A stretch of DNA of 64,000 nt from Acidimicrobiales bacterium. Its GTDB lineage: Bacteria > Actinomycetota > Acidimicrobiia > Acidimicrobiales > BPGG01. The stretch covers positions 597,468-661,467 of the forward strand of contig BPGG01000001.1 in assembly GCA_026002915.1 (NCBI GenBank), read 5' to 3'. A program made the position numbers and the translations under genes. The notes under the pieces are model-generated. The model saw only the letters and a program-made list of their open reading frames with translations. It was not told where the DNA came from and did no database searches. Below, in pieces: positions 12,735-58,777 of this stretch; the first letter of the stretch is position 1; each line of letters begins with the position of its first letter.

Positions 12735-12742
12735 GTGACACC

Positions 12743-31922: not shown

Positions 31923-32015
31923 GGTTCCTCCTTGCCGCTCCGCAGCGCGAGCCTACAGGCGCTCTGTCGGCCGCTCAGCCGAGCCCGGCCAGGCCCCTCG
32001 CCGACGGCGCCTTCA

Positions 32016-33584: not shown

Positions 33585-35309
33585 GTGCCCGAGGTGGAGG
33601 ACGGCCCGCGTGACCTGCGCGACCACATCCAGGTCCTCCGTCGGAGGAGGTTCGTCTTCTTGGCCTCCTCCGGGCTGGTCGTACTCGTCGCGATGGTGTT
33701 CACCTACCTCCAGCCTCCCGCGTACAGGTCGACCGCCGAGATCCTCTTCCCGCAAGAGACTTCTCCGATCGGTGACACCCCGACGCGCGCCGTAGACGCA
33801 GCGAGGCGCATAGCCAACGAAGTGACGCTCATCGAGAGCGCCCTAGTCGATCGCGAAGCAGACCGGGCTATCGGTCTGGACGTCGACTGTGAAGCCGATT
33901 CTGCTCGCGACGCAGACGTCATAAGGGTTCACGCGACCAGCGGCGACCCGCACCAGGCGGCTCGGATGGCGGACGCGTGCGTGGAGGCGTATCTGAGGGT
34001 CCGCGCGGCTCGTGACTTGGACCAGTACGAGCAGAGCGCCGAGGTGGCCCGCCGACGGATCGCGGAGATCGACCGGAAGCTGCAGGAACTCGAGGCCCGA
34101 AGCCGCCAGTCCGGAGAGTCCGCAGACTCGTCGGAGGTCTCCGAGCCGGGCGCTTCCGAGTCGGAAGCCGTCCCGGCAGCCACGGAGGAAGAGATCTCCC
34201 GCCTTTCGTCCGAGCGCATCGTGTGGGTGGAGCGCCTGGCCCAGATCGAGGCTGCGGGTGATCTCGCCCGTATATCGGGACCTCGGGTGATCGACGAGGC
34301 CCGCGTCCCCACGAGTCCCATTCGCCCGCGTCCGCTGCGAAACGGAATCCTCGCCGCGCTGGTGGGCCTCGCCTTCGGTACGGCGGTCGCGTTCCTGGTC
34401 GACTTCCTCGACGACTCCGTGAAGTCGACCGAAGACGCGCACAGGGCCACCGCAGGCCTGCCGGTCCTGGCGCTCGTACCGCGAGTTGCGACGTGGCGCG
34501 GCCGAGAAGCACAGGCACCGGCCACGCTGGCACAACCGTCCTCTCCCGCTGCCGAGGCCTACCGATCACTGAAGACCGCCATCCAGTTCAAGACCCTGGA
34601 CGCGCCTCCGAAGGTGCTCGTGGTGACGAGCCCCGGCTCCGGCGACGGCAAGTCCACGGCGGTGGCGAACCTCGCAGTGGCGGCCGCTCGCTCCGGCATG
34701 CGCGTCGTCGCGGTCTCCTGTGATCTGCGTCGGCCGCGACTGCACGAACATTTCCACATCTCGAACCACCTCGGCTTCACGTCGGTGCTCGCCGGAGAGG
34801 CTTCCCTGTCCGCCGTCGTCCACCGGGTGCCGGAAGTGGAGGATCTGCTCGTGCTACCCTCCGGACCCCCCGCTCCGAATCCGGCAGAGCTGCTCCAGAC
34901 CGCGCGTGCACGCGAGGTGTTCAGGATCCTGAGAGAAGAAGCGGATCTCACCATCGTCGACACCCCACCCGTCATCCCCGTGACCGACAGTCTCGTCCTC
35001 TCCGAGATCGCCGACGCCATCCTCCTCGTCGTGCGAGCGGGCTCGACCGGACGCAGGGCGACCCACAGGGCCGTCGAGATGCTCGCGGCGACCCGCGCCC
35101 GGCTGGTGGGCATCGTGTTCAACGACGTCTCGGAGACCGACGGTTACGGCTACGCGTACGGCGCGGAAAACGCATACGTAAGGGAAGACATGAGTTCGGA
35201 AGGACTGCTCAGGTCCTTGTTCGCGAAAACGTCACGCCGTGACGCCGACTCCGCCAACCTCGCGGACCCCGATCCGCGGGAATCCACGCAGGAGACGGTG
35301 GAGGCATAG
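33585..35309 (+). CDS. Polysaccharide co-polymerase (Wzz domain) fused to a BY-type tyrosine autokinase
   Basis: 574-aa ORF. N-terminal TM + Wzz-like coiled region, second TM, then Walker A SPGSGDGKST, A' VSCDLRRP, Walker B LTIVDTPP and a C-terminal Tyr cluster (DGYGYAYGAENAY). Confidence 0.85.
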   Translation: MPEVEDGPRDLRDHIQVLRRRRFVFLASSGLVVLVAMVFTYLQPPAYRSTAEILFPQETSPIGDTPTRAVDAARRIANEVTLIESALVDREADRAIGLDVDCEADSARDADVIRVHATSGDPHQAARMADACVEAYLRVRAARDLDQYEQSAEVARRRIAEIDRKLQELEARSRQSGESADSSEVSEPGASESEAVPAATEEEISRLSSERIVWVERLAQIEAAGDLARISGPRVIDEARVPTSPIRPRPLRNGILAALVGLAFGTAVAFLVDFLDDSVKSTEDAHRATAGLPVLALVPRVATWRGREAQAPATLAQPSSPAAEAYRSLKTAIQFKTLDAPPKVLVVTSPGSGDGKSTAVANLAVAAARSGMRVVAVSCDLRRPRLHEHFHISNHLGFTSVLAGEASLSAVVHRVPEVEDLLVLPSGPPAPNPAELLQTARAREVFRILREEADLTIVDTPPVIPVTDSLVLSEIADAILLVVRAGSTGRRATHRAVEMLAATRARLVGIVFNDVSETDGYGYAYGAENAYVREDMSSEGLLRSLFAKTSRRDADSANLADPDPRESTQETVEA

Positions 35310-35311
35310 CG

Positions 35312-36571
35312 GTGAGCGACAAGGTCCTCTTCGTCGGTCAGGGATACGTCGGACTGCCCGTGGCCATGAGGGCGGTCGAATGCGGTTTCCGTGTGGTGGG
35401 CCTGGACTCGGACGAACGCAGGGTCGAGATGCTCGAACGCGGGGTCTCCCCGGTCGAGGACGTCTCGGACGACCGCCTCAGGAGTGCCTTGGCGAGCGGG
35501 CGTTACGAACCCACCGTCGATCCTCGCCGCGGGGAAGATTTCGACTTCGCGGTGATCTCCGTCCCGACACCCCTGAGAGACGGAGTGCCCGACCTGTCCC
35601 ACATCACCGACGCGTCGAGAACCGTCGGATCGATGTTGAGAGCCGGTTCATGCGTGATCCTCGAGTCGACGACGTGGCCGGGTACCACAGAAGAGGTGGT
35701 CGGCCCGATCCTGGAAGATTGCTCCGGCCTCGTCGTGGGCGACGACTTCCACCTCGGCTACAGCCCGGAGCGCATCGACCCCGGGAACCGGGAGTGGCCC
35801 TTCGAGCGCATACCCAAGGTCGTGTCGGGCGTCGACGAGGCGTCACTGAAGGCGGTCTGCGACTTCTACTCCCGACTGGTCGAGCGGATCGTCCCGGTCT
35901 CCGGATGCAAGGAGGCCGAACTCACGAAGCTGCTGGAGAACACCTTTCGTCACGTGAACGTCGCCCTGATGAACGAACTGGCGATGTTCGCCCACGACCT
36001 GGGGATCGACATCTGGGAGGCGATCGACGCTGCCGCGACGAAACCGTTCGGGTTCATGAGGTTCGAGCCGGGTCCCGGGGTCGGGGGACATTGTCTCCCC
36101 GTCGACCCCTCCTACCTCTCCTGGCGGGTGCGGACGAGCCTCGGAGAGACCTTCCGCTTCGTGGAGCTCGCAAACGACGTGAACGAGCACATGCCGTCCT
36201 ACGTCGTCGGACGGATAGTGCGATCCCTGAACGAACGGTCTCTACCCGTCAAGGGACGGCGTGTGCTCCTCCTCGGTATCGCCTACAAGAAGAACACGGG
36301 AGACGCCAGGGAGTCGCCCGCCCGGGGCGTGGCGAGGCACCTCCTCGAACTCGGCGCCGAAGTAGTGGCCGCGGATCCCCACGTCGACCCGGTCGAGTTC
36401 CCCGACGGAGTGGCCCCCGTGGACGCCACGCCCGAAGAGGTGTCCAAGGCAGACGTGGTGGTGCTGCTCGTCGACCACGACGCCTTCGCTCTCGACCAGA
36501 TCGTCGCGTCGGCGAAGTTCGTGTTCGACACCCGCCACAGAGTCTCGGGTGGCAACGTAGAGCACCTCTGA
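35312..36571 (+). CDS. Nucleotide-sugar 6-dehydrogenase (UDP-GlcNAc/UDP-ManNAc dehydrogenase type; WbpA/WecC-like)
   Basis: 419-aa ORF. GGAGG precedes GTG 35312. N-terminal VGQGYVGLPVA and the catalytic Cys block GVGGHCLPVDPSYL. Confidence 0.85.
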   Translation: MSDKVLFVGQGYVGLPVAMRAVECGFRVVGLDSDERRVEMLERGVSPVEDVSDDRLRSALASGRYEPTVDPRRGEDFDFAVISVPTPLRDGVPDLSHITDASRTVGSMLRAGSCVILESTTWPGTTEEVVGPILEDCSGLVVGDDFHLGYSPERIDPGNREWPFERIPKVVSGVDEASLKAVCDFYSRLVERIVPVSGCKEAELTKLLENTFRHVNVALMNELAMFAHDLGIDIWEAIDAAATKPFGFMRFEPGPGVGGHCLPVDPSYLSWRVRTSLGETFRFVELANDVNEHMPSYVVGRIVRSLNERSLPVKGRRVLLLGIAYKKNTGDARESPARGVARHLLELGAEVVAADPHVDPVEFPDGVAPVDATPEEVSKADVVVLLVDHDAFALDQIVASAKFVFDTRHRVSGGNVEHL

Positions 36572-36581
36572 GCGTGCGCCC

Positions 36582-38579
36582 GTGCAGTCGAACCTCGCAC
36601 ACGATCTGAGGGTCCTTGGGGCATGGGCGCCGTTGCGCGCCCTGTACGAACTGTCCAAGCAGCTCGGCGTCCAGCGGATCATCCATCGCCGAGAACCCGA
36701 CGCATCGAAGGTGTCCGATCCCTTGCGGTACGCCCCGAAGCACCTCCCGCCTGCGCCCGTTCCGCCGAGCGTCGCCTCCCGCACCTTGGAGGAGGCGGCC
36801 GAGATAGTGGAAGGACGAGTGTGGCTGTTCGGCCGACGGCTCGATGTGGGACACCCCCCGGACTGGCACGCCGTGCTGCACGCACCCGGAGCGTGGCCGC
36901 GGCACCCATGGTGGACGATCGACATCCGCTCACCTCGACGAGCAGGTGACGTCAAGTGGGTGTGGGAGCTCGCCCGACACAGGCATCTGGTGGTGCTCGC
37001 CCGGGCTGTCCATCTCGATCCCCGCGACGCACGCTGGCGGGAGGCGCTCCGTGTCCAGTTGGAGAGCTGGCTCGAGGCCAACCCTCCCGGGACGGGAGTG
37101 AACTGGTACTCGAATCTGGAGTTGGGTCTCCGTGCAGTGAGATGGGCGGAGATCTTGGCTCTGGCGGGCGCGCACCTCCCTCTCCCACTTCGCAAGCAGA
37201 TGGGCGTGCATCTCCGGGCAAGCCTCAAACAGATGCTCTCGGAGCTCCCCTACACGCTGTCGACCATGCGGAACAACCACCTCGTCGGCGACCTGGTCGG
37301 TATGGCCGCCTGCGCCCGGCTCTGCGGATCGAGGCGCCTTGCCCAGCTCGTCGACCGGATGCTCGTCGAATTCGCCTGCCGCTTCGTCCGCGAGGACGGA
37401 TCGAGCACCGAAGACTCGATCTCCTACCAGCGCTTCGTGCTCGAACAACTCTGCGCCTGGACGCTCCTCACCGGCAGGCGCGACCTGGTGCGCCGTTCGC
37501 TCGCCATCGCCGGATGGCTCTCGCGCATGGGTGCCCTCGAGGATCCGCCGCCGCCGTTCCTCGGAGACGACGACGACGGAAGGTTCCTCGTGGGCTCACC
37601 GACCGAGCGGGAAGTCGGGTCGTCCGCGCGCCTTGCTGCATGCCTGGCCGGAAGCGGCGCCGACGTGACGTGGAGGAACGACGGACTCCTCGGGTGGTAC
37701 GTGCCCGAAGGAGAGCCCGCGAACCTTCCCGACGCAGAGTCCGCCGGAGACAGGGTCGCTCCGGGTATCGCGCGGGTCCGGGTCGGCGAGACGGTCGTCT
37801 GGCTGAAGGGCGGAGGGGAGCGATCACACACGCACGCCGACCGCTGCTCCGTGCACGCCGTGGTGGCCGGCAGACTCGTCTCGGGCGACCCCGGCACCGG
37901 TACGTACAACGGGCCGGCGGAGGTGCGGGACTGGTTCCGGTCGTCCCGCGCCCATTCCGTACTCCTGGTGGAGGGAGAGGATCAGCTCGTCCCGCACCGG
38001 ACCTTCCGCTGGCTGTACGACGCGCAGGGGGACGTGGGGGAGCCGGTGCATCTCCGAGGAGGCTGGCGGATCGTCTGGGGTCACCACTCGGCCTACCTCC
38101 GTCAACGTCCGCCCCGCGAGGTGGTGAGAGCGGTGACGGTCTGCGAAACGTTCGTCGTGATCGGAGACTGGATCTCCGGCGGCGGCCGACCCCGCTGGGA
38201 GCTGGAGGTGGTCCTCCCACCCGGCGTCCCCTCCTCCGACGTGGGGCTCCCCGACCCGCTTCCGGAAGGATGGTCGGAGCCGGAGGCATCACATGAAGCC
38301 CTCTGGAGTGACCGCTACGGCTCATGGGGACCGACCTCGTCGCTGCGACTGCGAGGATGGGGTACGGGGCCGGTCGCCTGGTCCGTCGGCGACGGCCGGT
38401 CGCTGCCTACGCTCGAGGTGTGTCCAGGCGGAACCCTGGTGGTCGGGCGAAGAGTGGAGCTGCGGGTCGCCTGGGGCGCAACGCCGCGCCTAGTCGTGAC
38501 GGACAGGCGTGACGACCTGCAGATCGTCCTGCCGATCAGGGGGGAGCCGATCCGAGGTGAAGCGAGTGCCCAGAGCTGA
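36582..38579 (+). CDS. Heparinase II/III-like (alginate-lyase superfamily) protein
   Basis: 665-aa ORF. Central pattern NWYSNLELGLRAVRW...NNHLVGDLVG...SYQRFVLE and a C-terminal HTHADRCSVH block, matching my recollection of Hepar_II_III family proteins in O-antigen/capsule loci. Assigned by family resemblance only. Confidence 0.6.
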   Translation: MQSNLAHDLRVLGAWAPLRALYELSKQLGVQRIIHRREPDASKVSDPLRYAPKHLPPAPVPPSVASRTLEEAAEIVEGRVWLFGRRLDVGHPPDWHAVLHAPGAWPRHPWWTIDIRSPRRAGDVKWVWELARHRHLVVLARAVHLDPRDARWREALRVQLESWLEANPPGTGVNWYSNLELGLRAVRWAEILALAGAHLPLPLRKQMGVHLRASLKQMLSELPYTLSTMRNNHLVGDLVGMAACARLCGSRRLAQLVDRMLVEFACRFVREDGSSTEDSISYQRFVLEQLCAWTLLTGRRDLVRRSLAIAGWLSRMGALEDPPPPFLGDDDDGRFLVGSPTEREVGSSARLAACLAGSGADVTWRNDGLLGWYVPEGEPANLPDAESAGDRVAPGIARVRVGETVVWLKGGGERSHTHADRCSVHAVVAGRLVSGDPGTGTYNGPAEVRDWFRSSRAHSVLLVEGEDQLVPHRTFRWLYDAQGDVGEPVHLRGGWRIVWGHHSAYLRQRPPREVVRAVTVCETFVVIGDWISGGGRPRWELEVVLPPGVPSSDVGLPDPLPEGWSEPEASHEALWSDRYGSWGPTSSLRLRGWGTGPVAWSVGDGRSLPTLEVCPGGTLVVGRRVELRVAWGATPRLVVTDRRDDLQIVLPIRGEPIRGEASAQS

Positions 38580-40428
38580 CCAGCCGACCTCTCAGCCCCG
38601 GAGGTCACTTCTCCTCCTCCACCAGTTCGCCAACCCCTTGGGCAGCCCTGGGGGAACCAGACACGCGGAGCTGTTCGCCTTCATGGACGGCTGGCAGGCC
38701 ACCGTCGTGACCGGCGCGACGAACCTGTTCGACGGCGAGCCCCAACGGGGGCTGGGTCCCGGGTGGGTCACTGTACGAACTACGCCATACGGCCCTTCCG
38801 CACCTTCTCGGATCGCATCGTGGATCACCTGGGCTGCAGGCGCGGTCGCGAAGGGGATCCGCATGCCGCGCCCGGACGTCGTGTTCGCATCTTCTCCGCA
38901 GCTGCTGGCGGGTGCTGCGGGCGCCCTGCTCGCAGCGCGGTGGAGAGTGCCCTTCGTGTTCGAGGTGCGCGACCTGTGGCCGGACGTCCTCGTACACATG
39001 GGGACCATCCGACGAGGCGGGGCTCTGCACAGGTCTCTGGCAGCACTCGAACGTCGGTTGTACGAGAGAGCGAGCCTCGTCGTCTGCTTGGCAGAGGGAG
39101 TGGCCGAGGAGCTGCGGAGGCGTGGCGTGCCGGCGAGGAAGATCGCTTTCGTACCGAACGGAGCCGATCCCGACTCGATGAAGCCGCCGGCACCCAAGGA
39201 CATCCTGCGACGTCGCCTCGGTCTGCCTCCCGACAGACTGATCTTCGTCTATGCGGGCGCCCATGGGGTGGCCAACGGCCTCCACCTGCTCTTGGAAGCG
39301 GCCCGGGAGCTTGCCGGCAGTCACCCCGAAGCTCTCTTCGTCTTGGTGGGTGACGGGCCGGCCAAAGAGTCGCTCGTGAGACAGGCGGAGGAGATGCGGC
39401 TCACGAATGTCGTCTTCAGAGACCCACTGCCGAAGTCGGACGTTCCCGCTCTGCTCGGAGCCGTCGACGTGGGAGTGCACGTGTTGGCCGACGTCGAGCT
39501 CTTCAGGTGGGGAGTGAGCCCCAACAAGATCTTCGACTACATGGCAGCCGGACTGCCGATCGTGACGAACACCCCCGGAGAAGTCTCCGACATGGTCACC
39601 ACATCCGCGGCCGGCGTGGCCACCGCCCCCAGGGAGTTGGCATCTGGTCTCTCTCTCATGGCCGCACTCTCCGACGAGGAGCGTCGCTCCATGGGTGAGA
39701 GAGGAAGGAGGTGGCTCAGGGAGAACCGCGACCGGCGGACGCTCGCTTGCAAGATGCAGCGACTCCTGGACGACCTGGTCGACCAGGCGAACTGTGGGCG
39801 GCCGTACAGGGGGAAACGGTTGCTCGACTTGCTCCTGTTGATCGTCGTCTCGCCGGTGGCGATACCAATGGGTCTCCTCTGCGCGCTGGCCGTGAAGCTG
39901 ACCTCCCGCGGGCCGGTGCTGTTCAGACAGGAACGAGTCGGCATGGGGGGCGAGGTGTTCGAGGTGCTCAAGTTCCGCACGATGGTCCACTCCCAGAACC
40001 CGCTCTTCCCGGACCCCGACAGGATCACGCCAGTCGGTCGTGTCCTCCGCCGTACCTCACTCGACGAACTTCCACAACTTCTCAACGTCGCCCGGGGTGA
40101 GATGAGCATCGTCGGACCCAGACCGACGCTCCGATACCAGGTCGAGCGTTACACACCGCGTCAGAAGCGGCGGCTAGCGGTCAAGCCGGGGATCACGGGT
40201 CTGGCTCAGGTGAGCGGGCGGAACAGCCTCACGTGGTCTGAGCGAATCGAGCTGGACCTCGAGTACGTCGAACGACAGTCGCTCTGGCTGGACCTGAAGA
40301 TCCTCGCCAAGACACTCGGAGCGGTCGTCTCTGGCGGAGGGGTGGAAGGCCATCCACGTGACGACCCCATCGCGGCGCCGCCCTCCGACGCGGTGTCGGA
40401 GGGGCCCCACACTCCTCCCACGCGCTAG
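38557..40428 (+). CDS. Bifunctional GT4 glycosyltransferase (WbuB/WcaI-like) fused to a small monotopic phosphoglycosyl transferase (PglC/WbaP C-terminal type)
   Basis: Track ORF is 38509-40428. Start is probably GTG 38557 or 38566. Residues ~20-420 are GT4-like (FEVRDLWPD, GVSPNKIFDYMAAGLPIV). Residues ~430-620 form a Bac_transf domain (KRLLDLLLLIVVSPVAIP, GPVLFRQERVG, FEVLKFRTM, DELPQLLNV, MSIVGPRP). Confidence 0.8.
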   Translation: MKRVPRADQPTSQPRRSLLLLHQFANPLGSPGGTRHAELFAFMDGWQATVVTGATNLFDGEPQRGLGPGWVTVRTTPYGPSAPSRIASWITWAAGAVAKGIRMPRPDVVFASSPQLLAGAAGALLAARWRVPFVFEVRDLWPDVLVHMGTIRRGGALHRSLAALERRLYERASLVVCLAEGVAEELRRRGVPARKIAFVPNGADPDSMKPPAPKDILRRRLGLPPDRLIFVYAGAHGVANGLHLLLEAARELAGSHPEALFVLVGDGPAKESLVRQAEEMRLTNVVFRDPLPKSDVPALLGAVDVGVHVLADVELFRWGVSPNKIFDYMAAGLPIVTNTPGEVSDMVTTSAAGVATAPRELASGLSLMAALSDEERRSMGERGRRWLRENRDRRTLACKMQRLLDDLVDQANCGRPYRGKRLLDLLLLIVVSPVAIPMGLLCALAVKLTSRGPVLFRQERVGMGGEVFEVLKFRTMVHSQNPLFPDPDRITPVGRVLRRTSLDELPQLLNVARGEMSIVGPRPTLRYQVERYTPRQKRRLAVKPGITGLAQVSGRNSLTWSERIELDLEYVERQSLWLDLKILAKTLGAVVSGGGVEGHPRDDPIAAPPSDAVSEGPHTPPTR

Positions 40429-41524
40429 CGGACGCGTCTGCTCCCGTCTGCTACTTCGCGCAACACTCGTGCTAGCCCCAGCGCGTTCTCCTCCCACGTC
40501 ACCGGCCAACTCCACCGTCGAGGTCTCCGCGCGAACCGATTCGACATGAGTTCCCCGAGCGTCTCCACGTCCCCGACGCGGAAGTATTCAGCGTGCTCTC
40601 CGGCCACTTCCCGATGGGGTGGTATGTCAGACAACATGATCGGGCATCCGACCGAACCGGCCTCGGCGGGGGTGAGCGGGTGAGCCTCGAGTTCCGACGT
40701 CGACACGGCCGCCACCGCGTTCTCCAACAACCATCGGACCGCGGCGCGGTCTGCGAGGGAGCCGGTGAACACGAGACGGCGGCGCAGGGGGGCTGGGACC
40801 AGCGAGCGGAGAGCCGCCCTCCTCGCCGGCGCGATCTCACCGACCATGACCAGCCCTGGGACTTCCCCGTCGCCGCCCTCGCGAAGACGATGTGCGGCCA
40901 CCCATGCCCTGACACAGTCGTCGAGTCGCTTGTGGGGATAGTCGTTCGCAAGGGACAGGAAGAACCGTCGCGGTAGTGGTACACCATCAGGTGGATGTGC
41001 GGGTCCCTCCCATCCAGGCGCTCCGCTCTGCAACACCACGGCCTCCAGAGCCAGGCGAGGCGAGTCCACCGCCAGCTCGTCCCGCAGCGACTCGGATATG
41101 ACGACCAGGCGGTCCGCCCGTGCCATGGACAACCGCGACAGCGCGATCTTTGCCCTGCGGAGTGCTCCCCTGTTCTGGGGCAGGCGGCGTCCGCGACCTA
41201 CGTAATTGGGGTTCTGCAGCGTAAGCACGACGGGCACAGCCCTGATGCGGACCAGCGGACCGAAGTTGTTGGGGCAGTAGACGACGTCGGCCCGTCTCGA
41301 GGAGAGCACGAGCTGCTCGAGGAGGAAGCGACTAGGCACGTCGAACGCCGGGAGTGTCTTCACACGCGACCTAAGGCTGCTCGCCAGCTCCCGCGCGTTC
41401 CACGGTGAAGCGAGCACCTCCAACTCGAGATCCGGAGCGACTTTCTCCAGAGCCGCCAACTGAGATCTCGCATAGCTCAGCCCGCCTCCCACCCTCACGG
41501 CGCAGGCGTCGACCAAGACCCTCA
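40425..41524 (-). CDS. GT4-family glycosyltransferase
   Basis: Track ORF 40425-42134 is over-extended. Start is ATG 41524 (MRVLVDACAV), preceded by GGAGG. C-terminal GT4 block STSELEAHPLTPAEAGSVGCPIMLSD. Its 3' end overlaps the convergent gene by 4 nt. Confidence 0.75.
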
Positions 41525-41576
41525 TCGACCTCCACTCCACGTTCCGGACGGGCTCGGCGGGTACGCTGCGAGGGCG

Positions 41577-42500
41577 GTGCGCCTCCCCGACCCTCTGCAA
41601 GTGCCCTTGACGATCATCACACATCCGGCCAACCGGGGGCGAAGAGCCCGCGCACTGGCCCGTGGCCTCGGCTGGCAGATCTGGCAGCGGACGGTTCGCC
41701 GACCGATCGACGTGGTCGTGCCGGGGACGGGTCACCTGATGACGGTGCATCCGCACGCCACTTCCGAGACTCCCCTGCTCTACTGGGGTCTCCCCGAATG
41801 GTGGGAGATGAGCTTCGCCTCGACCTGGCTGCGTCCCGGGGACGTCTTCGTGGACGTCGGAGCACACTCTGGAGCCTTCACCTTGGTCGCTGCGGCCGTT
41901 CCTCGAGTGCGTGTCTTCGCATACGAGCCCTCCTCTGCGGCGTTCCGCAGACTGGAGCGAAACGTAGAAGCCAATCTCCTGTCCGACCGGGTGGTGCTGC
42001 GCAGACGCGCAGTCGGCTCGTCCCACGGCCGGGTGGAGATAACCACCACGTTGGACACCCGGAACAAGGTCGTCACCGCACGTCCGGGTGAACCAGAACG
42101 GGGTGAAGACGACGCGTCGGGGTTCGACGTGCACCCCACAGAGCCGGTAGAGATGGTCACCCTGGACGCCGAGCTGGGTACCGCCGAGACCGTCTCGCTA
42201 ATAAAGATCGACACGGAGGGCTCGGAGGCGGGAGTGGTCGCCGGAGCCGAGCGGGTACTCGCCAGGTGGCGACCAGCGGTGCTCTGCGAGGAGAACGGCC
42301 ATGATGCGGCGGAGCTGCTGGAGACGCTCGGCTATCGACGTTTCCACTACGACCCGAGACTCCACCTGGTGAAGCCCGGCAGACCGGCCGGCAAGCTCGA
42401 GCGGAATTCCCTCTGGTTGGCGGACTTGGCCGCGGCCAGGCACAGACTCGGTCCGTCTGCGGTGCCCCCGGAGCTAGAGGTTTCGGCTTCGCGGTGCTGA
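41577..42500 (+). CDS. FkbM-family SAM-dependent methyltransferase
   Basis: 307-aa ORF with FVDVGAHSGAFT (SAM-binding) and LIKIDTEGSEAGV, the characteristic FkbM blocks. Confidence 0.8.
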   Translation: MRLPDPLQVPLTIITHPANRGRRARALARGLGWQIWQRTVRRPIDVVVPGTGHLMTVHPHATSETPLLYWGLPEWWEMSFASTWLRPGDVFVDVGAHSGAFTLVAAAVPRVRVFAYEPSSAAFRRLERNVEANLLSDRVVLRRRAVGSSHGRVEITTTLDTRNKVVTARPGEPERGEDDASGFDVHPTEPVEMVTLDAELGTAETVSLIKIDTEGSEAGVVAGAERVLARWRPAVLCEENGHDAAELLETLGYRRFHYDPRLHLVKPGRPAGKLERNSLWLADLAAARHRLGPSAVPPELEVSASRC

Positions 42501-44987: not shown

Positions 44988-45011
44988 TTCGTCTCAGCCC
45001 TCTGCCGGCGA

Positions 45012-46154: not shown

Positions 46155-46155
46155 C

Positions 46156-48608: not shown

Positions 48609-48728
48609 TCCCCCGCCGCGTCAGTCTTCGCTCCCTCCCCCATCCACCTTCCACCTTCCCACTCTCGTGAACATCTCCTTCGCGGGTGGCATATGGGGCT
48701 CGCAAGCCCGACCTGACAACATGGATCG

Positions 48729-49730: not shown

Positions 49731-49745
49731 CGCCCACGCGAAAAC

Positions 49746-49770
49746 GGGAGGTGGCCGATGACCACCTCCC
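49746..49770. terminator. Perfect 9-bp stem, 7-nt loop hairpin between convergent genes (candidate bidirectional intrinsic terminator)
   Basis: gggaggtgg-ccgatga-ccacctccc, read directly. It lies 16 nt after the stop at 49730 and 69 nt before the convergent stop at 49839. No U-tract. Confidence 0.45.
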
Positions 49771-49838
49771 GTCGACTGTGGGCCTCTCGGACCCTCAGAT
49801 GTCCGGCCTCAAGCCGCCGGACGGACCCCCTGTGGGCG

Positions 49839-52754: not shown

Positions 52755-52943
52755 GCTCCCCCCTGAGGGCCTAGTACCGCCTGAGACCTGTGCGCGCCGA
52801 ACATTACAAAACCGCCCACGCCCGCGTCCACTACCGACCGACGCCCTCCCTGGTCGGAAGGATTCGTCGGGTGACGCATGACTTTCGCAGGAATCGACAC
52901 GGCATGTTTCGCAGCAAGCCACACGGCGTGCAATTCTCGCGGC

Positions 52944-53531
52944 GTGGGACCACACCTCCGTCTTGGCGGGACCCGGAGACTGATCGGAGTCGCCCTCGCG
53001 GTCGTGTGCCTCGCGGCTGCATGCTCACGAGACGAGGGAGCCGCCGTCGGACGGAAAACAACCCCTACCGACACAGACGCCCCCGGGTCGGCGGAACATC
53101 AGCCCGGGCGGTGGCCCGGATCTCCGGCTCCCTGCGACCTGTTGCCGTCTGAAGACGTCGAGGCGGTGACAGGGTTCGCAGTGGCCTTGGTGGAGGTGTC
53201 CTCCCGCGCCTTCGACGGGAGGACGCTCGCCGCCTGCTTGGCTCACAAACCCGAGAGTGGCGTCGAGGCGGGGCAGCTCACGCTCACGCTCAACCCGCCC
53301 GGTTGGCGCTTCGGACCGGAAAGAGAGCTATTCGCCTCGCTCGAGGAACTGGACGGTGTGGGCAGACGGGCATGGATTGGTCGCACGGCAGACCGGACGG
53401 CTCCGGGGCCGAACTTCGTCACCGTGGACATGGGAAGGGGAGGGTTCACGATCGCCGCGCTCGTGGCGACCGGGGTCGATGAGGAGGATCTGACGCGGCT
53501 GGCCCGGGCCGCAGCGGCTAGATGGGAATGA
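52944..53531 (+). CDS. Small lipoprotein (DUF3558-like pattern)
   Basis: Track ORF is 52878-53531. I prefer GTG 52944 (VGPHLRLGGTRRLIGVALAVVCLAAACS, lipobox LAAAC). The PAPCDLLPSEDVEAV segment resembles the PC-x-LL block of actinobacterial DUF3558 lipoproteins, recalled from memory. Confidence 0.5.
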   Translation: MGPHLRLGGTRRLIGVALAVVCLAAACSRDEGAAVGRKTTPTDTDAPGSAEHQPGRWPGSPAPCDLLPSEDVEAVTGFAVALVEVSSRAFDGRTLAACLAHKPESGVEAGQLTLTLNPPGWRFGPERELFASLEELDGVGRRAWIGRTADRTAPGPNFVTVDMGRGGFTIAALVATGVDEEDLTRLARAAAARWE

Positions 53532-54652
53532 AGCACGTCGAGTGGCGCGTTCGGCTCGCCGAGCCGCTTCTCGGACAGGAGGAGCTCGAGGCAATCGGCC
53601 GCGTCTTCTCCTCCGGGCGTCTCACGGCGGGACCGTGGACCGAACGGTTCGAGGAGCAGTTCGCCCGACTGCACGAGGTGCCACATGCGGTGGCGCTCTC
53701 CAGCGGAACCACGGCACTGGCAGCGATCATGACGGCGCTGGAGATCGGCCCCGGCGACGAGGTGGTGGTTCCTTCGATGACGTTCGTGTCGACCGCAACC
53801 TCCGTCTTGCACGTGGGAGCGACGCCCGTCTTCGCGGACGTCAGACCGGACATCTTCACCATCGACCCGAGCGACGTGGAACGTCGTCTGACGCCGAGGA
53901 CGAAGGCGGTGATAGCCGTGCACTACGGCGGGCAGCCAGCGGACTTGGACGAGCTGCTCGCCCTCTGCGAAGACGCCGGGATCCACCTGATCGAGGATGC
54001 CGCCGAGGCCCACGGTGCGACGTACAAGGGCCGTCGTGTCGGGTCGTTCGGGGTGGCCGCGATGTTCTCGTTCACGCCGACCAAGAACTTCACGACGGGC
54101 GAAGGCGGGATGGTCACGACGCGGGATGCCACGCTGGCCGCGAAGTTGAGAGCACTGAGGAACCACGGCCAGACAGACCTATACGTGCACGAGAGCCTCG
54201 GCTACAACTGGCGGATTACCGAGATGCAGGCGGCGATAGGCACTGTTCAGCTCAGCCGCTTCGACGCGGTGATCGCGAAGAAGCGGCGAGTGGCGGCAAA
54301 GCTGAGCGAGCTCCTCTATGGGATCGACGGGGTGAGGCCGCCGGTGGAGCTACCCGACAGGATGCACGTCTGGATGTTGTACACGATTCTCGCAGAAGAT
54401 CGTGACGCGCTCGCCGAGCACATGAGAGCACGAGGGATCGAGACTCGCCTGTACTTTCCGCCGGCCCACCGTCAACCGATCTTCGAGGACGTCGACGTCG
54501 AGCTCCCGGTCACCGACGAACTCGCAGCAACCATGCTCTCCCTCCCCGCTCACACACGAATGTCGGACGAAGACGTCGAGTGCGTCGCCGGCGAGGTCCG
54601 AGATTTCTACTGCGCCCGAGGCCACGATCACCAGGCGCGACCCGCCACCTGA
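53522..54652 (+). CDS. DegT/DnrJ/EryC1/StrS-family PLP-dependent sugar aminotransferase
   Basis: 376-aa ORF with SSGTTAL, DAAEAHGA and the PLP-lysine block FSFTPTKNFTTGEGGMV. Confidence 0.9.
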   Translation: MGMKHVEWRVRLAEPLLGQEELEAIGRVFSSGRLTAGPWTERFEEQFARLHEVPHAVALSSGTTALAAIMTALEIGPGDEVVVPSMTFVSTATSVLHVGATPVFADVRPDIFTIDPSDVERRLTPRTKAVIAVHYGGQPADLDELLALCEDAGIHLIEDAAEAHGATYKGRRVGSFGVAAMFSFTPTKNFTTGEGGMVTTRDATLAAKLRALRNHGQTDLYVHESLGYNWRITEMQAAIGTVQLSRFDAVIAKKRRVAAKLSELLYGIDGVRPPVELPDRMHVWMLYTILAEDRDALAEHMRARGIETRLYFPPAHRQPIFEDVDVELPVTDELAATMLSLPAHTRMSDEDVECVAGEVRDFYCARGHDHQARPAT

Positions 54653-54740
54653 TCTCCTGGTCCCCACCGAGTGTCTGCCCTCGCGGGTCGACGGTCCTCT
54701 CTGCCGAGCGTCGTCCGGCCCGGGCAGACCGTGGGAAGCC

Positions 54741-56909
54741 TCAGGGGACGCGCGGGACCACGCAGCAGCCGGTCGAGAGTGATTCCACTATCGCGAGCGT
54801 CACCGCAGTCGTCTCGAGAGCTCGTTCGGCATGCTCTCGATCTCCGCCTAACACGGCCTGGGCGAACACTCTCAGCTCCTCTCGGTGCCCCTTGTCCTGC
54901 CTCGGCCTCGAGACCGACCTGCCGTCCACGACGAGCCTGCGCCAGTCGTCGATCTCACACGTGCGCGAGCCCTTGAAGACGACGAGGTTCTCCTTGGGGG
55001 TCGACGGACTCCCGACCGATGCATAGACGATCGAGGCGAGCGAACCGTCTTCGAACTCCATGGCGACCGACACGTCGTCGGTCGTCGGTACGTCGTCGGC
55101 TCCGTCTCTCACCCCACCGACTGCCGACACCCTGACCACCCTCGCCTCGACCAGCGCCATGCACGTGTCGACGAAGTGGCACACCTCTCCGATGATGCGG
55201 CCACCCTGCCGTCGATCCGCATACCAGTGCCCCGGGGGGATCCGCCCGGCGTTCACCCTGTAGCTGATCGTCGCAGGACCCGCCACGCTCGTGAGCACCC
55301 GACGTGCTTCCCGAAGCCATGGGGACCATCGGCGGTTGAATCCGACCATCAGAACCCCGTCACTCGCGGCGAGCGCCTCCGCCACCTCGGTCAGCTGTTC
55401 CTCCGAGATCGCCAGAGGCTTTTCACAGAACACGTGCTTTCCCGCTCGCAGGGCCTCCACGGTCAAGGGGGCATGGACGTCGTGAGGCGCAGCGATGAAT
55501 ACGACGTCTACGTCGGGGTCCACGATGACCCGACGTGCGTCCGTGGACGTGCGGGCGAAACCGAACCGCTCGGCGAGCCTTTCGGCAGTACGCCCCGAGG
55601 CGGAGCTGACCGCCACGAGTGGAGCGAAACCGGCTGCACGCAGACCCGGCACCAGCACCCGCTCCGCGAAGCTCCCGGCCCCGACGAGCCCCACGCCGCC
55701 ACGAACGCCGCGCCTCCCGGTCGTGGGCGCGGCCGCTCTCGCCCCTCTGGACCTGGCGTAGACGGCGGCTTTCGCTCCGTGAGCGAGCGACTCGACGTGT
55801 CTCCGGTCGTATGAGAGCAATACGGCGCAAGAGTCCGGATCCCGTTCTACGACTTCGTATGCCTCAGCCACGCGCTCGAAGGGGAAGCGGTGGGTCACCA
55901 GTTCCCCCGGGTCCACCGAGCCCCTCGCCAGCAGATCCAGGGCAGCTGCCATGTTGCGGCCCGCCGTCCAACGAGCCACCCCCGGCGGATAGTCGACACC
56001 CAGACGCTCGTAGCTGTGGTCGTATCGACCGGGCCCGTAAGACCTGGCGACTCTGACGGTGAGCTCTCGCTCGTAGAGCAGTCGCCTGTCGAGGTCCATA
56101 CGCACGTCGCCGACCACCACCACCGTCCCTCGCTCGCGTGTGTGCTCACATGCCGCCCGCGCAGCCCCCGGCGTCCGGTCCGACGCGCAGACGACGGTCA
56201 CGTCGGCTCCCTCCCCCTCGGACCACTCCGCCACCGCGACCCGCGCGGATTCCCCCGGCGGCGCGACTTGGTCACAGTGTCGCGAGGCTCTCGCCATCGC
56301 GACGGCGCGAGGGTCCACCCCGACGACAGGACATCCGCACGCCCTCGCGACCCGCACCGCCAACTGACCGAGCAGTCCCAGGCCGACCACACACACCCGC
56401 GAACCCAGTTCAACGCCCCCCAGGCGCAGAGCGTTGACGACGATCGCCATGAGGGTCGCGAAGCACGCCTTCTCCGATGCGACCTGTTCAGGAACCGGCA
56501 CCGCCAGCAGTGCCGGGACGGTCTGCACCTCGCCGTGACCGGCCCCCGCAGTGGCGACTCGCATGCCCGGTCGCAGTCCCCCTGTGTACTCTCCGACTTC
56601 GAGCACCGTCCCGACACCCGAATACCCGAGAGGCATCTGATCTTCCAGACGAGATCTGACCAGGGATGCCGTGTCGCGCAGACCAGCCACTCGCGCCCGG
56701 CGCCACACTTCACGCACCAGGTCCGGCCTCTGCATCGCCTTGCGCACCAGCGACGACCCGGCGAGATTCCTCACCGCTCTCTCGGTCCCCGACGAGATCA
56801 CCGACCATTCCGTCGCGACGGTCACCTCGGTCGCTTGCGGCCGGGGTGTCGGCACCTCCAGCAACACGAGGGAGCCGTCCTTGGTGGATTGGAACAGTTG
56901 ACGGACCAT
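54741..56909 (-). CDS. Bi-domain oxidoreductase: N-terminal zinc-type alcohol dehydrogenase (MDR) fused to a C-terminal Gfo/Idh/MocA domain
   Basis: 722-aa ORF. N-half carries GYSGVGTVLEVG and VVGLGLLGQLAV. C-half carries VGLVGAGSFA and FCEKPLAIS. Its ATG overlaps the upstream stop by 1 nt (TGATG). Confidence 0.8.
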   Translation of the reverse strand: MVRQLFQSTKDGSLVLLEVPTPRPQATEVTVATEWSVISSGTERAVRNLAGSSLVRKAMQRPDLVREVWRRARVAGLRDTASLVRSRLEDQMPLGYSGVGTVLEVGEYTGGLRPGMRVATAGAGHGEVQTVPALLAVPVPEQVASEKACFATLMAIVVNALRLGGVELGSRVCVVGLGLLGQLAVRVARACGCPVVGVDPRAVAMARASRHCDQVAPPGESARVAVAEWSEGEGADVTVVCASDRTPGAARAACEHTRERGTVVVVGDVRMDLDRRLLYERELTVRVARSYGPGRYDHSYERLGVDYPPGVARWTAGRNMAAALDLLARGSVDPGELVTHRFPFERVAEAYEVVERDPDSCAVLLSYDRRHVESLAHGAKAAVYARSRGARAAAPTTGRRGVRGGVGLVGAGSFAERVLVPGLRAAGFAPLVAVSSASGRTAERLAERFGFARTSTDARRVIVDPDVDVVFIAAPHDVHAPLTVEALRAGKHVFCEKPLAISEEQLTEVAEALAASDGVLMVGFNRRWSPWLREARRVLTSVAGPATISYRVNAGRIPPGHWYADRRQGGRIIGEVCHFVDTCMALVEARVVRVSAVGGVRDGADDVPTTDDVSVAMEFEDGSLASIVYASVGSPSTPKENLVVFKGSRTCEIDDWRRLVVDGRSVSRPRQDKGHREELRVFAQAVLGGDREHAERALETTAVTLAIVESLSTGCCVVPRVP

Positions 56910-58777
56910 CAGGAGGCGAGAACCCGACGTGGACTCGACGTCGTGAGGCGACGCAGCTCCTCTGTCGGATCCGGGTCGTCGTCGAGACCTTCCACCTCCT
57001 CGAAAGCGAGAGGCGGCACGTCGACGTGTGAGATGGCGGGATGCACTCGCCGGCTCTCGACCTCTTCCTCCCCGAACAACACCTCGTGGAGCTTCTCCCC
57101 GGGCCTCAGACCGGTGAACTCGATCGGTATGTCACGCCCGGAGGCGGCTACCAGCCTGCGAGCCACGTCGACGATGCGGACCGGATCACCCATGTCGAGC
57201 ACCAGAGCCTCGCCTCTCCGACCGACTGCACCCGCCTGTATGACCAGCTCGCATGCCTCCTGCACGGTCATGAAATAACGGGTCACTTCGGGATGCGTGA
57301 CGGTGACCGGGCCGCCTCGACGAATCTGCTCCTTGAACGCCTCGAGCACCGAACCCCGGCTCCCGAGGACGTTCCCGAACCGGACGCTGAGATACACACC
57401 GCTCCCCTCTACCTCGTTGGCGGCAGCAGTGAGGCGCTCCGCTACGCGCTTGGTGTAGCCCAGCACCGAAGTCGGATCGGCCGCCTTGTCGGTGGACACG
57501 TTGACGAAACGACCCACGCCGAACTCGAGACTCGCTCGCAAGACGTTCAGAGTGCCGAGGACGTTCGTCTTCACGGCCTCCCTCGGGTGTAGTTCGAGCA
57601 GCGGTAGGTGCTTGAGTGCCGCAGCGTGGAAGACGACCTCTGGCCGGTGCCGGGCAAAGACACGCCGCAGATCTTCTTGGTCGCGGATGTCGCAGACGAC
57701 CAGATGCTCGCCTTCCGAGTTTCCTGAATCATCACCGCTCGACCTCCGGGCACCCGCAAGAGAGAGCTGCACCTGGTACAAGGCGGTCTCGTCCCTGTCG
57801 AGCATCACCAGTCGGGCCGGTGAGAAACGCGAGATCTGACGACAGAGCTCGGAACCGATCGACCCCCCTGCGCCCGTGACGAGCACGCGGGACCCGCCTA
57901 TGTATCCGGCTATCCCCACGACATCCGTCTCTATTCGATGACGACCGAGGAGGTCCTCCTCGCTCACAGGCCGGATGTCTGCCAGCTCGAGTGGGTGGCC
58001 CAGCAACTCCCCCACCGCAGGCAGGACGTGCACTTGGAGGCCTGCCCTCTCTGCGCGCTCGGTGAGCTCACGGATCAGCTCCGACCGTGCCGACGGTATC
58101 GCTATCAGGATCGCCGAAGCCCTGAACCTCTGGGCTGCCTGTGGTATGTCGTCCCGCGTCCCTACTACTCGTATCCCTTTGATCCGAAGGTTTCGCTTCG
58201 CCGGATCGTCGTCCAAGACGGCGACTGGCACGAAGGGGCTGTCCGGCGTACGCAGCATCGCAGACACGATCTGGAAACCGCCCTCCCCAGCCCCGAAGAC
58301 GAGAAGGCGTCGAGCCCGTGCCGAAGGTCTGAGACGACGCTCCAAGCTCAACCTGAAGGCGTAACGGGCGCCCCCCATGAGAACGAAGGCGACCATGCCC
58401 GAACCCAACAGCACGCTCGCCGGCAGTCGTGGGGGCGAGACGAGCCGGTTCACAGCGGTCACGACGGCGGTGACCACGACGACACCCCTCGCCAGCGCCG
58501 CCACCTCCTCGAAGCTGCCGTACCTCCAGCGACCCCGGTATTGACCGCCGAGGATCCCCACTACCGCTTGGAGCGCCCAGAGCATCGGGAGCACGACGAA
58601 GATGCCACCGGTGCCCAGAGGATCGGTCATGAACCGCGAGTACCTGAGCCAGATGGTCAGGACCACCGCAACCGACCACGCCGTCCAGTCGACCCCTATC
58701 TGCACCACCGTCCTTGCGCGCGCGAGACGAGCCCACACCGTCGTCGGGTTCCCACCGTCTTCACGCAATGCAGGCAC
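56909..58777 (-). CDS. Membrane-anchored nucleotide-sugar 4,6-dehydratase (CapD/PglF/WbpM family)
   Basis: 622-aa ORF. Four N-terminal TM helices, then two Rossmann regions (LLVFGAGEGG; VLVTGAGGSIGSEL) and the catalytic Y-x-x-x-K (GYTKRVAE). Confidence 0.9.
   Translation of the reverse strand: MPALREDGGNPTTVWARLARARTVVQIGVDWTAWSVAVVLTIWLRYSRFMTDPLGTGGIFVVLPMLWALQAVVGILGGQYRGRWRYGSFEEVAALARGVVVVTAVVTAVNRLVSPPRLPASVLLGSGMVAFVLMGGARYAFRLSLERRLRPSARARRLLVFGAGEGGFQIVSAMLRTPDSPFVPVAVLDDDPAKRNLRIKGIRVVGTRDDIPQAAQRFRASAILIAIPSARSELIRELTERAERAGLQVHVLPAVGELLGHPLELADIRPVSEEDLLGRHRIETDVVGIAGYIGGSRVLVTGAGGSIGSELCRQISRFSPARLVMLDRDETALYQVQLSLAGARRSSGDDSGNSEGEHLVVCDIRDQEDLRRVFARHRPEVVFHAAALKHLPLLELHPREAVKTNVLGTLNVLRASLEFGVGRFVNVSTDKAADPTSVLGYTKRVAERLTAAANEVEGSGVYLSVRFGNVLGSRGSVLEAFKEQIRRGGPVTVTHPEVTRYFMTVQEACELVIQAGAVGRRGEALVLDMGDPVRIVDVARRLVAASGRDIPIEFTGLRPGEKLHEVLFGEEEVESRRVHPAISHVDVPPLAFEEVEGLDDDPDPTEELRRLTTSSPRRVLAS

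Follow-up and report, generated by a model that had tools for sequence, protein, structure and literature searches.

In this study, we analysed a 64-kb stretch of contig BPGG01000001.1 (the window), which belongs to the metagenome-assembled genome (MAG) KatS3mg008 of an uncultured hot-spring actinobacterium of the order Acidimicrobiales. A glycan locus of about 25 kb occupies positions 33585 to 58777 of the window. As shown in Table 1, it carries a Wzx/Wzy-type assembly machinery, two sulfotransferase genes (stA and stB, products ST-A and ST-B), a heparinase-fold protein (HEP), a methyltransferase and enzymes for nucleotide sugars, arranged in eight transcription units of alternating orientation. 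The GC content of the window is high (0.65-0.69), and many of its open reading frames (ORFs) are therefore spurious; genes were chosen by third-position GC (GC3) and then scanned against Pfam and NCBIfam. Every gene family named in the preliminary description of this DNA was located in the interval by these scans. That description had omitted a 972-aa secreted protein (SEC), a small putative lipoprotein (LIPO) and a PglD-type acetyltransferase upstream of the locus. The same locus is present on a Logan contig from run DRR290133, and no paper was found on the source MAG. Recent horizontal transfer of the locus was considered and is unsupported by base composition, GC being 0.65-0.68 inside the locus and 0.62-0.69 in the window flanks. 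Rfam and tRNA scans of the 64-kb window gave no matches. Related loci in other genomes and contigs are cited below by L numbers.

Table 1. Genes of the glycan locus and the upstream acetyltransferase gene, with positions in the window, strand and supporting features
Feature	Position	Strand	Supporting features
Wzz-type co-polymerase fused to BY tyrosine autokinase (Wzz/BY-kinase)	33585..35309	+	TIGR01007 151 bits (cutoff 108)
NDP-sugar 6-dehydrogenase (UDH)	35312..36571	+	TIGR03026 389 bits; three UDPG_MGDP_dh domains
Heparinase II/III-fold protein (HEP)	36582..38579	+	Hepar_II_III_C 54.6 bits
Family 4 glycosyltransferase (GT4, N-terminal) fused to monotopic, initiating phosphoglycosyl transferase (PGT, C-terminal)	38509..40428	+	Bac_transf 206 bits
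GT4a glycosyltransferase	40425..41525	-	Glyco_trans_1_4, Glycos_transf_1 and Glyco_trans_4_4 matches
FkbM-family S-adenosylmethionine (SAM) methyltransferase	41577..42500	+	Methyltransf_21 55 bits; TIGR01444 92 bits (cutoff 37.7)
GT4b glycosyltransferase	42494..43573	+	Glycos_transf_1 80.5 bits
Wzx, MOP-family flippase	43554..44987	+	Polysacc_synt_3 64 bits (cutoff 23); Polysacc_synt 54 bits
GT4c glycosyltransferase	45012..46154	-	Glyco_trans_1_4 102.6 bits; last gene of the wzy-stA-GT4c unit
Sulfotransferase ST-A	46156..47121	-	Sulfotransfer_3 42.7 bits (cutoff 27); ORF extends to 47172
Wzy-like repeat-unit polymerase	47118..48608	-	TIGR04370 29 bits (cutoff 40); O-ag_pol_Wzy 19 bits (cutoff 26.6)
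Sulfotransferase ST-B	48729..49730	+	Sulfotransfer_3 49.9 bits (cutoff 27); Sulfotransfer_1 36.7 bits
Secreted protein SEC, 972 aa	49839..52757	-	Signal peptide; Cys-rich N-terminal domain of ~540 aa; PKD and CarboxypepD_reg/SdrD_B repeats
Small putative lipoprotein LIPO	52878..53531	+	Lipobox-like VCLAAACS, read directly
DegT-family PLP sugar aminotransferase (DegT)	53522..54652	+	DegT_DnrJ_EryC1 411 bits
Bi-domain oxidoreductase (BIOX)	54741..56909	-	GFO_IDH_MocA 82 bits; ADH_zinc_N 42.6 bits
PglF/CapD/WbpM-type membrane UDP-HexNAc 4,6-dehydratase (PglF)	56909..58777	-	Polysacc_synt_2 351 bits; CoA_binding_3 45.7 bits
NeuD/PglD-type sugar N-acetyltransferase	24620..25309	-	TIGR03570 199.7 bits (cutoff 160.8); PglD_N and Hexapep; 8 kb upstream of the locus

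ST-A and ST-B are paralogues (29% identity, E 9e-21). The stA gene is placed between wzy and the GT4c gene within one transcription unit, and stB lies between wzy and the SEC gene. The start of stA is most likely the GTG at 47121, as indicated by alignments of homologues and by a GTGA overlap with the wzy stop that was read from the sequence; the protein then has 321 aa. A public call of this gene (294 aa; 10001-10885 of the Logan locus L001) begins past the P-loop that binds 3'-phosphoadenosine 5'-phosphosulfate (PAPS), and so lacks the P-loop. An AlphaFold (AF2) model of ST-A, built from the family alignment, had a pLDDT of 92.4 and a pTM of 0.90. When the model was compared with the PDB by Foldseek, all 50 matches listed were PAPS sulfotransferases or the PAP-binding retinol dehydratase of the same fold, and no other kind of P-loop NTPase was among them. 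The top matches were the tyrosylprotein sulfotransferases TPST1/2 with bound PAP and the OLS and CurM sulfotransferases; cytosolic SULTs and Stf9 were also matched.

ST-A was aligned with 39 homologues and ST-B (41 sequences). R22, G24 and T26 of the GxGRSGSTLL motif, Glu43, the D-S-x-K motif (145-148), and D172 and R174 of the HLVRDPRAxxxSW motif were invariant, and the other motif positions were at least 90% conserved. The 5'-phosphosulfate loop is GSGRSGSTLL in ST-A (residues 19-28) and STGRSGSTLL in ST-B, and it aligns with the loops of TPST and OLS; the ST-A family profile detected the OLS sulfotransferase at E 1e-19 and TPST at E 1e-11. Glu43 aligns with the second Glu of CGEETR in TPST, which is the catalytic Glu of that enzyme. 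The 3'-phosphate motifs, VRDPRAVAHS in ST-A and VKDPRAYVFS in ST-B, align on VRDGRASVHS of TPST. ST-B also has the GE and DSSK motifs, and the first Arg of its 3' motif is replaced by Lys. The TPST residues concerned are presumably R78, E99, R183 and S191. Neither ST-A nor ST-B has a transmembrane (TM) segment or a signal peptide. These results suggest that both proteins are credible PAPS-type sulfotransferases, and they look functional. The preliminary description had considered that they might lack PAPS-binding geometry or group with P-loop proteins other than sulfotransferases; the ST-A model matched PAPS sulfotransferases only, and the motifs and the catalytic Glu are kept.

We next considered how this sulfotransferase family is distributed and what surrounds its genes. 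A search at E<1e-5 gave more than 3,000 homologues of ST-A. Among GTDB species-representative genomes, a collection that does not include the source MAG, at least 594 family matches were found, and none of the matches exceeded 41% identity. The best 80 were mostly from Actinomycetota (Dactylosporangium, Nonomuraea, Micromonospora, Streptosporangium, Nocardioides, Nocardiopsis, Iamia, Acidimicrobiia, Solirubrobacterales and Gaiellales), with others from Chloroflexota, Deinococcota and Gammaproteobacteria. The 80 loci were surveyed over 10 kb on either side of the sulfotransferase gene against annotated reference genes for glycan assembly and PAPS synthesis, among them those of L082, L083 and L084; an earlier tblastn search with the window proteins alone was too insensitive, giving almost no co-hits, and was superseded by this wider set. 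Of the 80 loci, 63 had one or more genes for a PGT, Wzx, Wzy, Wzz or glycosyltransferase, and 51 had at least two classes of glycan-assembly genes. PAPS-synthesis genes were found in 23 of the loci, a CysQ-like gene in 25 and two or more sulfotransferase genes in 45. No recognisable glycan-assembly gene was found in 17 loci, for example in eight Dactylosporangium loci with a single sulfotransferase. Of all the evidence at hand for glycan sulfation via PAPS by this family, its repeated linkage to genes of glycan assembly and of PAPS supply is the strongest. Bacterial sulfated polysaccharides had been described as rare and mostly found outside actinobacteria; the number of family matches, the predominance of Actinomycetota among the best 80 and the 51 loci with two or more assembly classes speak against this.

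Two of the loci illustrate this linkage. In Thermus thermophilus (AP024937.1, 643874-664815; L084), genes for a sulfate permease, ATP-sulfurylase, APS kinase, Wzx, a sulfotransferase, GT2, Wzy and GT4 are followed further on by PGT and Wzz genes. By its gene content this is apparently a complete locus for a sulfated glycan, in a model thermophile that can be cultivated; we found no paper on it or on any sulfated polymer of Thermus. The second example is an actinobacterial ENA contig with a sulfotransferase cluster that carries the NCBI name Thermostaphylospora chromogena. It has the gene order PGT, CysQ, CysD, CysN, sulfotransferase, GT2, WecG, two sulfotransferases, Wzy and GH26, and includes a 38% identical ST-A homologue. 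In a separate observation, fusions to a Glyco_tran_28_C (PF04101) glycosyltransferase domain occur among the ST-A homologues P0045, P0058, P0099, P0111 and P0117. As predicted from their domains, such fusions are a direct physical tie between sulfotransferase and glycosyltransferase activities.

Three sister loci (L083, L098 and L100) have a specific core in common with the window. The first, L083, is a 187-kb contig of a JGI metagenome. It shares LIPO (33% identity), SEC (32% over ~950 aa), Wzy (37%), an orthologue of ST-A (38%), GT4c (38%), the GT4 of the fusion (45%), HEP (47/36%), Wzx (44%) and GT4b (46%). The second, L098, is from Rhabdothermincola sp. (assembly GCA_036846205.1), also of the Acidimicrobiales, and shares Wzx (48%), HEP (44%), Wzy (43%), a glycosyltransferase, GT4 (49%) and GT4c (38%); its sole sulfotransferase is the orthologue of ST-B (42%), and its SEC match is confined to the C-terminal repeats (35%). 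SEC homologues lie beside Wzy-like genes in L083 (5257-8448), L098 (8850-12062) and the Logan contig L100 (10001-12730), the last of which has a glycan locus with a heparinase-like gene and no sulfotransferase within 10 kb. A LIPO homologue adjoins SEC in L083, and in L098 an unannotated 214-aa gene adjoins SEC at the LIPO position, the likeness being one of position. LIPO had no Pfam or NCBIfam match. SEC is identical to the NCBI protein KatS3mg008_0578, and its N-terminal domain is rare, with 11 cluster representatives among 1.84 billion proteins in an exhaustive HMMER search. A word-indexed search with this domain returned only the query protein itself, and a metagenome scan with the SEC alignment found no relatives. 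None of the 80 surveyed ST-A-homologue loci held HEP, SEC, FkbM or BIOX, and the gene combination of the window is thus clade-specific. These comparisons suggest that a core of sulfotransferase, HEP with its GT4, Wzx, Wzy, SEC and LIPO, common to Rhabdothermincola and one metagenome contig, is what is distinctive here.

The assembly genes agree with the Wzx/Wzy-type locus that had been proposed for this actinobacterial-type genome: PGT, Wzx and Wzz were found above cutoffs and the Wzy-like protein by a weak match. Matches of the Wzz/BY-kinase to the Wzz and GNVR families were weak. Two TM segments (residues 24-42 and 254-272) lie in its Wzz-like N-terminal half, and its translation contains the P-loop TSPGSGDGKST, an IVDTPP motif and the C-terminal tyrosine cluster YGYAYGAENAY. 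The ORF scan covered the GC3-picked genes of the window and not every frame, and neither an LMWPc nor a PHP phosphatase came up in it; to that extent the reported lack of a low-molecular-weight phosphatase partner for the kinase is borne out. In the GT4-PGT fusion, the GT4 domains span residues 61-402 and Bac_transf (cutoff 27) residues 436-607, with a TM segment at 441-459; TIGR03025 gave 259 bits, under its cutoff of 295. The real start of this gene probably lies downstream of 38509. Its GT4 half is a separate gene right after HEP in L083, L097, L098 and L099 and is fused to the PGT in L086. GT4a has 366 aa; the 569-aa ORF at 40425-42134 carries a spurious 5' extension without family matches, which masks the FkbM gene on the opposite strand. 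Wzx has at least nine hydrophobic segments and is 44-48% identical to Wzx of L083 and L098, in which the 38% identical counterparts of GT4c are also syntenic. The Wzy-like protein is polytopic, with at least seven hydrophobic segments, and is 37-43% identical to proteins at the matching position, beside sulfotransferase and GT4 genes, in the same two loci. The TM scan identifies Wzx, Wzy, PglF and Wzz as membrane proteins and shows no TM segment or signal peptide in the glycosyltransferases. No OPX gene was found.

HEP was examined by structure prediction as well. Its AF2 model (pLDDT 90.3) matched heparinase III, PL15/17/33 lyases and human dermatan-sulfate epimerase 1 (DS-epi1) in Foldseek. 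N231, N232, H233, Y282, H416, H418 and Y442 were invariant in 35 homologues. Like the PL12/PL15/PL17 lyases and DS-epi1, HEP has an (alpha/alpha) toroid and a beta-sandwich, with conserved Asn-Asn-His and Tyr of the kind that abstracts a C5 proton. Unlike them, it has no signal peptide, and it is linked to dehydrogenase and GT4 genes in biosynthetic loci; no TM segment was found either. Because residues of catalytic type are invariant and a signal peptide is lacking, HEP is expected to act intracellularly, taking the C5 proton from a uronic acid, and on its model it should be of the uronate lyase or C5-epimerase type. The missing signal peptide and the tight linkage to dehydrogenase and GT4 suggest a biosynthetic role. 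We found no relevant publications on biosynthetic loci that carry heparinase II/III-like proteins.

The neighbours of HEP elsewhere are consistent with such a role. A total of 315 homologues were found at E<=1e-10, with 40-50% identity, in Frankia, Parafrankia, Rhabdothermincola and many metagenomes. The HEP homologues are directly trailed by a ~395-aa GT4, which is fused to a PGT in the window and in L086. Other neighbours are DegT (L086, L088, L089, L093, L095), BIOX (L090, L093, L096, L097, L099), UDH (L087, L099), the PglD-type acetyltransferase (L086, L087, L095) and PglF (L097). The contigs found by the metagenome scan with the HEP alignment were short, and are informative for immediate neighbours only.

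The nucleotide-sugar genes were then compared with known pathways. The best equivalogs of UDH were UDP-ManNAc dehydrogenase and UDP-GlcNAc dehydrogenase (TviB), above UDP-Glc dehydrogenase and every one under cutoff, which suggests that its substrate is probably a UDP-HexNAc, yielding a uronic acid. UDH homologues are 65% identical in L087, adjoining a heparinase-like gene, and 64% identical in L099. PglF has three N-terminal TM segments and scored 186 bits for PseB, under cutoff; a homologue (49% identity) lies in L097 beside BIOX-HEP-GT4 on the opposite strand. In the PDB, DegT was nearest to DesV (267 bits), followed by perosamine synthase (242), QdtB (241), ArnB (227), WbpE (218), PseC (161) and PglE (129), and its NCBIfam PseC score of 285 bits was under the cutoff of 423.5. 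DegT homologues adjoin HEP, BIOX or acetyltransferase genes in L086, L088, L089, L093 and L095. The BIOX gene overlaps the PglF stop by 1 nt, and the closest PDB relatives of BIOX are inositol and sugar dehydrogenases. Orthology of BIOX to WbpB was considered and is unsupported by the PDB ranking, WbpB and WlbA not being among the 60 chains listed; a WbpB-like role is a possibility suggested by its neighbourhood with DegT, HEP and UDH only. Homologues of the distal PglD-type acetyltransferase (49-55% identity) adjoin HEP, DegT or GT4-PGT genes in L086, L087 and L095, and it is therefore probably part of the pathway.

Two amino sugars fit these genes. The PglF-type dehydratase, the PglD-type acetyltransferase with its PglD_N domain and, at family level, the Bac_transf-type PGT point to a 4-amino-6-deoxy sugar. 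DegT scores 3-aminotransferases above PglE, adjoins the GFO-family BIOX and travels with the UDH/HEP set, and this points to a 3-amino uronic acid. The window has a PglF-type dehydratase, a DegT aminotransferase and a PglD-type acetyltransferase in common with the PglF/PglE/PglD pathway of Campylobacter (UDP-diNAcBac), although DegT is nearer to DesV, QdtB and WbpE than to PglE. With the WbpA/B/E/D(/M) pathway of Pseudomonas aeruginosa (UDP-2,3-diacetamido uronic acid) it shares a WbpM-type dehydratase, DegT and a WbpA/TviB-like dehydrogenase, and BIOX could stand for WbpB. It differs from that pathway in its two-domain oxidoreductase, in an acetyltransferase that is of the PglD and not the WbpD type and lies 8 kb off, and in having no Epimerase_2 (WbpI-type 2-epimerase) among the scanned ORFs; the Parafrankia locus L099 does encode Epimerase_2. 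The 2,3-diacetamido uronic acids ManNAc3NAcA and GlcNAc3NAcA are established in wall-bound teichuronic-acid-like polymers of actinobacteria, as reported for Streptomyces (PMC13274773). The 4-amino-6-deoxy sugar of the preliminary description seems somewhat more parsimonious than the 3-amino uronic acid.

Taken together, homology and gene neighbourhood make it likely that the locus directs the Wzx/Wzy assembly of an anionic, sulfated heteropolysaccharide on a polyprenyl-phosphate carrier, and its surface polysaccharide is very probably sulfated. A sulfated Wzx/Wzy glycan had already been proposed, and the ST-A model, the conserved motifs and the glycan-assembly (63 of 80) and PAPS (23 of 80) neighbourhoods support that proposal. 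In this scheme, UDH would make a UDP-HexNAc uronic acid and PglF a UDP-4-keto-6-deoxy-HexNAc, and an (acet)amido sugar of the 4-amino-6-deoxy or the 3-amino-uronic type would come from DegT and the upstream acetyltransferase. The first sugar-phosphate would be loaded onto the lipid by the PGT half of the fusion, and the fused GT4 half and the three other GT4 enzymes would complete a repeat of about five sugars. ST-A and ST-B would transfer sulfate from PAPS, FkbM (likewise without a TM segment or signal peptide) would add a methyl group, and HEP, as C5-epimerase or lyase, would have the uronic acid as its target. Since these four proteins are soluble and have no signal peptide, the decoration would take place on the cytoplasmic face, on the lipid-linked repeat, where PAPS and SAM are available. 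Wzx would then flip the repeat and Wzy polymerise it, with the Wzz/BY-kinase setting chain length via its C-terminal tyrosine cluster. SEC and LIPO may be conserved extracellular partners that act outside the membrane. A bolder version of the scheme, which we consider unlikely, is a glycosaminoglycan-like polymer, in which an amino-sugar/uronic repeat would be C5-epimerised by HEP, doubly sulfated and O-methylated on the cytoplasmic lipid-linked repeat, with SEC and LIPO as a new extracellular partner of Wzy. Its logic is that of dermatan or heparan sulfate synthesis in animals, and HEP is a fold relative of DS-epi1.

Several points weigh against the assembly of a sulfated polysaccharide by this locus. 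The nearest solved relatives of the sulfotransferases sulfate tyrosine or an acyl-ACP intermediate and not sugars, and it is the gene neighbourhood alone that points to a sugar acceptor. The Wzy assignment is based on sub-threshold family matches, topology and synteny. Queries with CysD, CysN, CysQ, ATP-sulfurylase, APS-kinase and sulfate permease (tblastn) found no match in the 64-kb window, in accord with the preliminary description, which had noted that PAPS-synthesis genes are missing; most of the surveyed loci likewise have no adjacent PAPS genes, so that their lack beside this locus says little. ST-A and ST-B could thus reside in the locus and not sulfate its polysaccharide, being inactive, having no PAPS in the cell, or serving another acceptor such as protein tyrosine, a lipid or a small molecule. 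The best structural matches, tyrosylprotein sulfotransferases and polyketide sulfotransferase domains with only 16-20% identity, would suit this explanation, as would the window without PAPS genes and the 17 of 80 homologue loci without recognisable glycan-assembly genes. However, the PAPS-binding and catalytic positions are kept in both proteins, stA is translationally coupled to wzy and followed by a GT4 gene, orthologues of both hold their position inside the sister glycan loci, and in 23 of the 80 species PAPS-synthesis genes share the neighbourhood with glycan-assembly genes. We therefore regard this explanation as quite improbable.

The locus may also not make one product, because it consists of eight alternating units whose sub-modules occur separately elsewhere. 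The interval would then be a mosaic of at least two independent glycan pathways, a nucleotide-sugar/HEP-GT4 module and a sulfotransferase/Wzy/SEC module, and the combined chemistry would never meet in one molecule. PglF-BIOX-HEP-GT4 (L097) and UDH/BIOX/HEP/GT4 (L099) do occur without any sulfotransferase, and so does SEC with a Wzy-like gene in L100. In contrast, the interval holds a single Wzx, Wzy, PGT and co-polymerase, and L098 and L083 pack sulfotransferase, HEP-GT4, Wzx, Wzy and SEC into one compact locus; a mosaic is in our view as improbable as sulfotransferases that do not act on the polysaccharide. An explanation that changes only the destination of the polymer is that the same machinery makes a product covalently linked to the wall, resembling teichuronic acid or a secondary wall polymer, instead of a released exopolysaccharide (EPS) or capsule. 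SLH-domain proteins of other bacteria dock onto secondary wall polymers, and two ORFs of the window (8750-11719 and 11268-12764, both on the minus strand) have SLH domains. The conserved LIPO and SEC suggest assembly at the cell surface, and Actinomycetota make wall-bound teichuronic-acid-like polymers with ManNAc3NAcA and GlcNAc3NAcA (PMC13274773). On the other hand, neither a LytR-CpsA-Psr ligase nor a pyruvyl transferase turned up in the scanned window ORFs, and co-polymerases of the BY-kinase/Wzz kind belong more typically to capsule and EPS systems. A wall-linked product is thus possible, and the most plausible of the alternatives, but it is not what we expect.

Sulfated polysaccharides were until recently said to be confined, among bacteria, to cyanobacteria. 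The preliminary description had held that no system of this kind was characterised. Synechan of Synechocystis sp. PCC 6803 is a Wzx/Wzy-type sulfated EPS, made by the xss genes, whose sulfate has been verified chemically (PMC8205485). In the actinomycete Actinoplanes missouriensis, the wps-1 cluster (WpsA-K) was characterised genetically in June 2026, and a sulfated EPS was proposed by its authors (PMC13390465); in view of these systems the claim is out of date. Like the window locus, xss is a Wzx/Wzy/polysaccharide co-polymerase cluster with two sulfotransferases, of distinct subfamilies in xss, amid glycosyltransferases; its sulfation is presumed to take place on the cytoplasmic side, and no PAPS genes are listed among the cluster genes. 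Unlike it, xss is cyanobacterial and plasmid-borne, with eight glycosyltransferases, neutral sugars (Rha/Man/Gal/Glc), the regulator XssQRS, an OPX protein and proven sulfate. As compared by gene content, xss has not been reported with a uronic-acid/amino-sugar module, a heparinase-fold protein, FkbM or SEC/LIPO.

The wps-1 cluster resembles the window locus in its host, an actinomycete, its Wzx/Wzy/Wzz genes, its two sulfotransferases and its SAM methyltransferase. It differs in its GT2 and GT26 enzymes, a GH26 hydrolase, a kinase-like protein and mutants with sporangium defects. Compared by its published description, it has not been reported with GT4 enzymes, a PglF/DegT/dehydrogenase module, a heparinase-fold protein or SEC. 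Its sulfate is the proposal of its authors from genetics. The gene content of the ENA contig with the 38% identical ST-A homologue (GT2, WecG, three sulfotransferases, Wzy_C, GH26) is like that of wps-1. Sulfated capsules whose polysaccharide clusters carry sulfotransferase genes, with structures determined by NMR, are known from Vibrio sp. KMM 8419 (PMC11641403) and Cobetia marina KMM 1449 (PMC11766843), and the authors of the Vibrio study propose sulfotransferase and PAPS-synthesis genes as a marker of sulfated polysaccharide synthesis (PMC11641403). The Vibrio locus, in contrast to that of the window, uses an ABC transporter (Kps) and no Wzy, contains cysNDC and has Rha/Glc sugars. The window locus adds an example to a known kind, such clusters being widespread in related bacteria. 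Its distinctive features, judged from gene content, are the sugar-precursor/HEP module and the SEC/LIPO pair.

Other genes of the window were also noted. One of the SLH ORFs has Amidase_2 and three SLH repeats, and the other has three SLH repeats; they overlap by ~450 nt, so that at least one start is wrong. As predicted proteins, they point to S-layer anchoring or a secondary wall polymer in the host. Within 438-8628 lie two MBOAT acyltransferase genes (438-2036 and 7048-8628) and the genes of a DltD-like protein (5982-7106) and of a membrane protein with weak likeness to PMT_2 (3011-5014); together they may be an AlgI/AlgJ-type glycan O-acylation or glycosylation module separate from the locus. 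Dihydrolipoamide dehydrogenase is split over 30526-31548(-) and 31535-32050(-) in different frames, with its N-terminal FAD part separate, and is either a frameshifted pseudogene or a MAG assembly error. A single 575-aa ORF at 27352-29079(-) fuses a LipB-type octanoyltransferase domain (LplA-B_cat) to radical-SAM lipoyl synthase. Two rhodanese fusions, ThiF/MoeB-rhodanese at 15198-16376(-) and metallo-beta-lactamase-rhodanese at 62040-63473(+), are by their domains of the sulfur-transfer or persulfide-dioxygenase type and unrelated to PAPS synthesis.

Sulfated polysaccharides are valued biomaterials. Because its organism is an uncultured MAG, the value of this particular window is limited, and the survey of the sulfotransferase family, with its 63 glycan-assembly and 23 PAPS neighbourhoods among 80 loci, is more useful than the locus itself. 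It points to tractable cultured carriers, namely Rhabdothermincola, Thermus thermophilus, Nonomuraea and Micromonospora. It also flags two conserved proteins, the cytoplasmic heparinase-fold HEP paired with a GT4 and the rare SEC paired with Wzy. The locus contributes to the genomic evidence for a wide occurrence of genes for sulfated surface glycans in Actinomycetota and other phyla.

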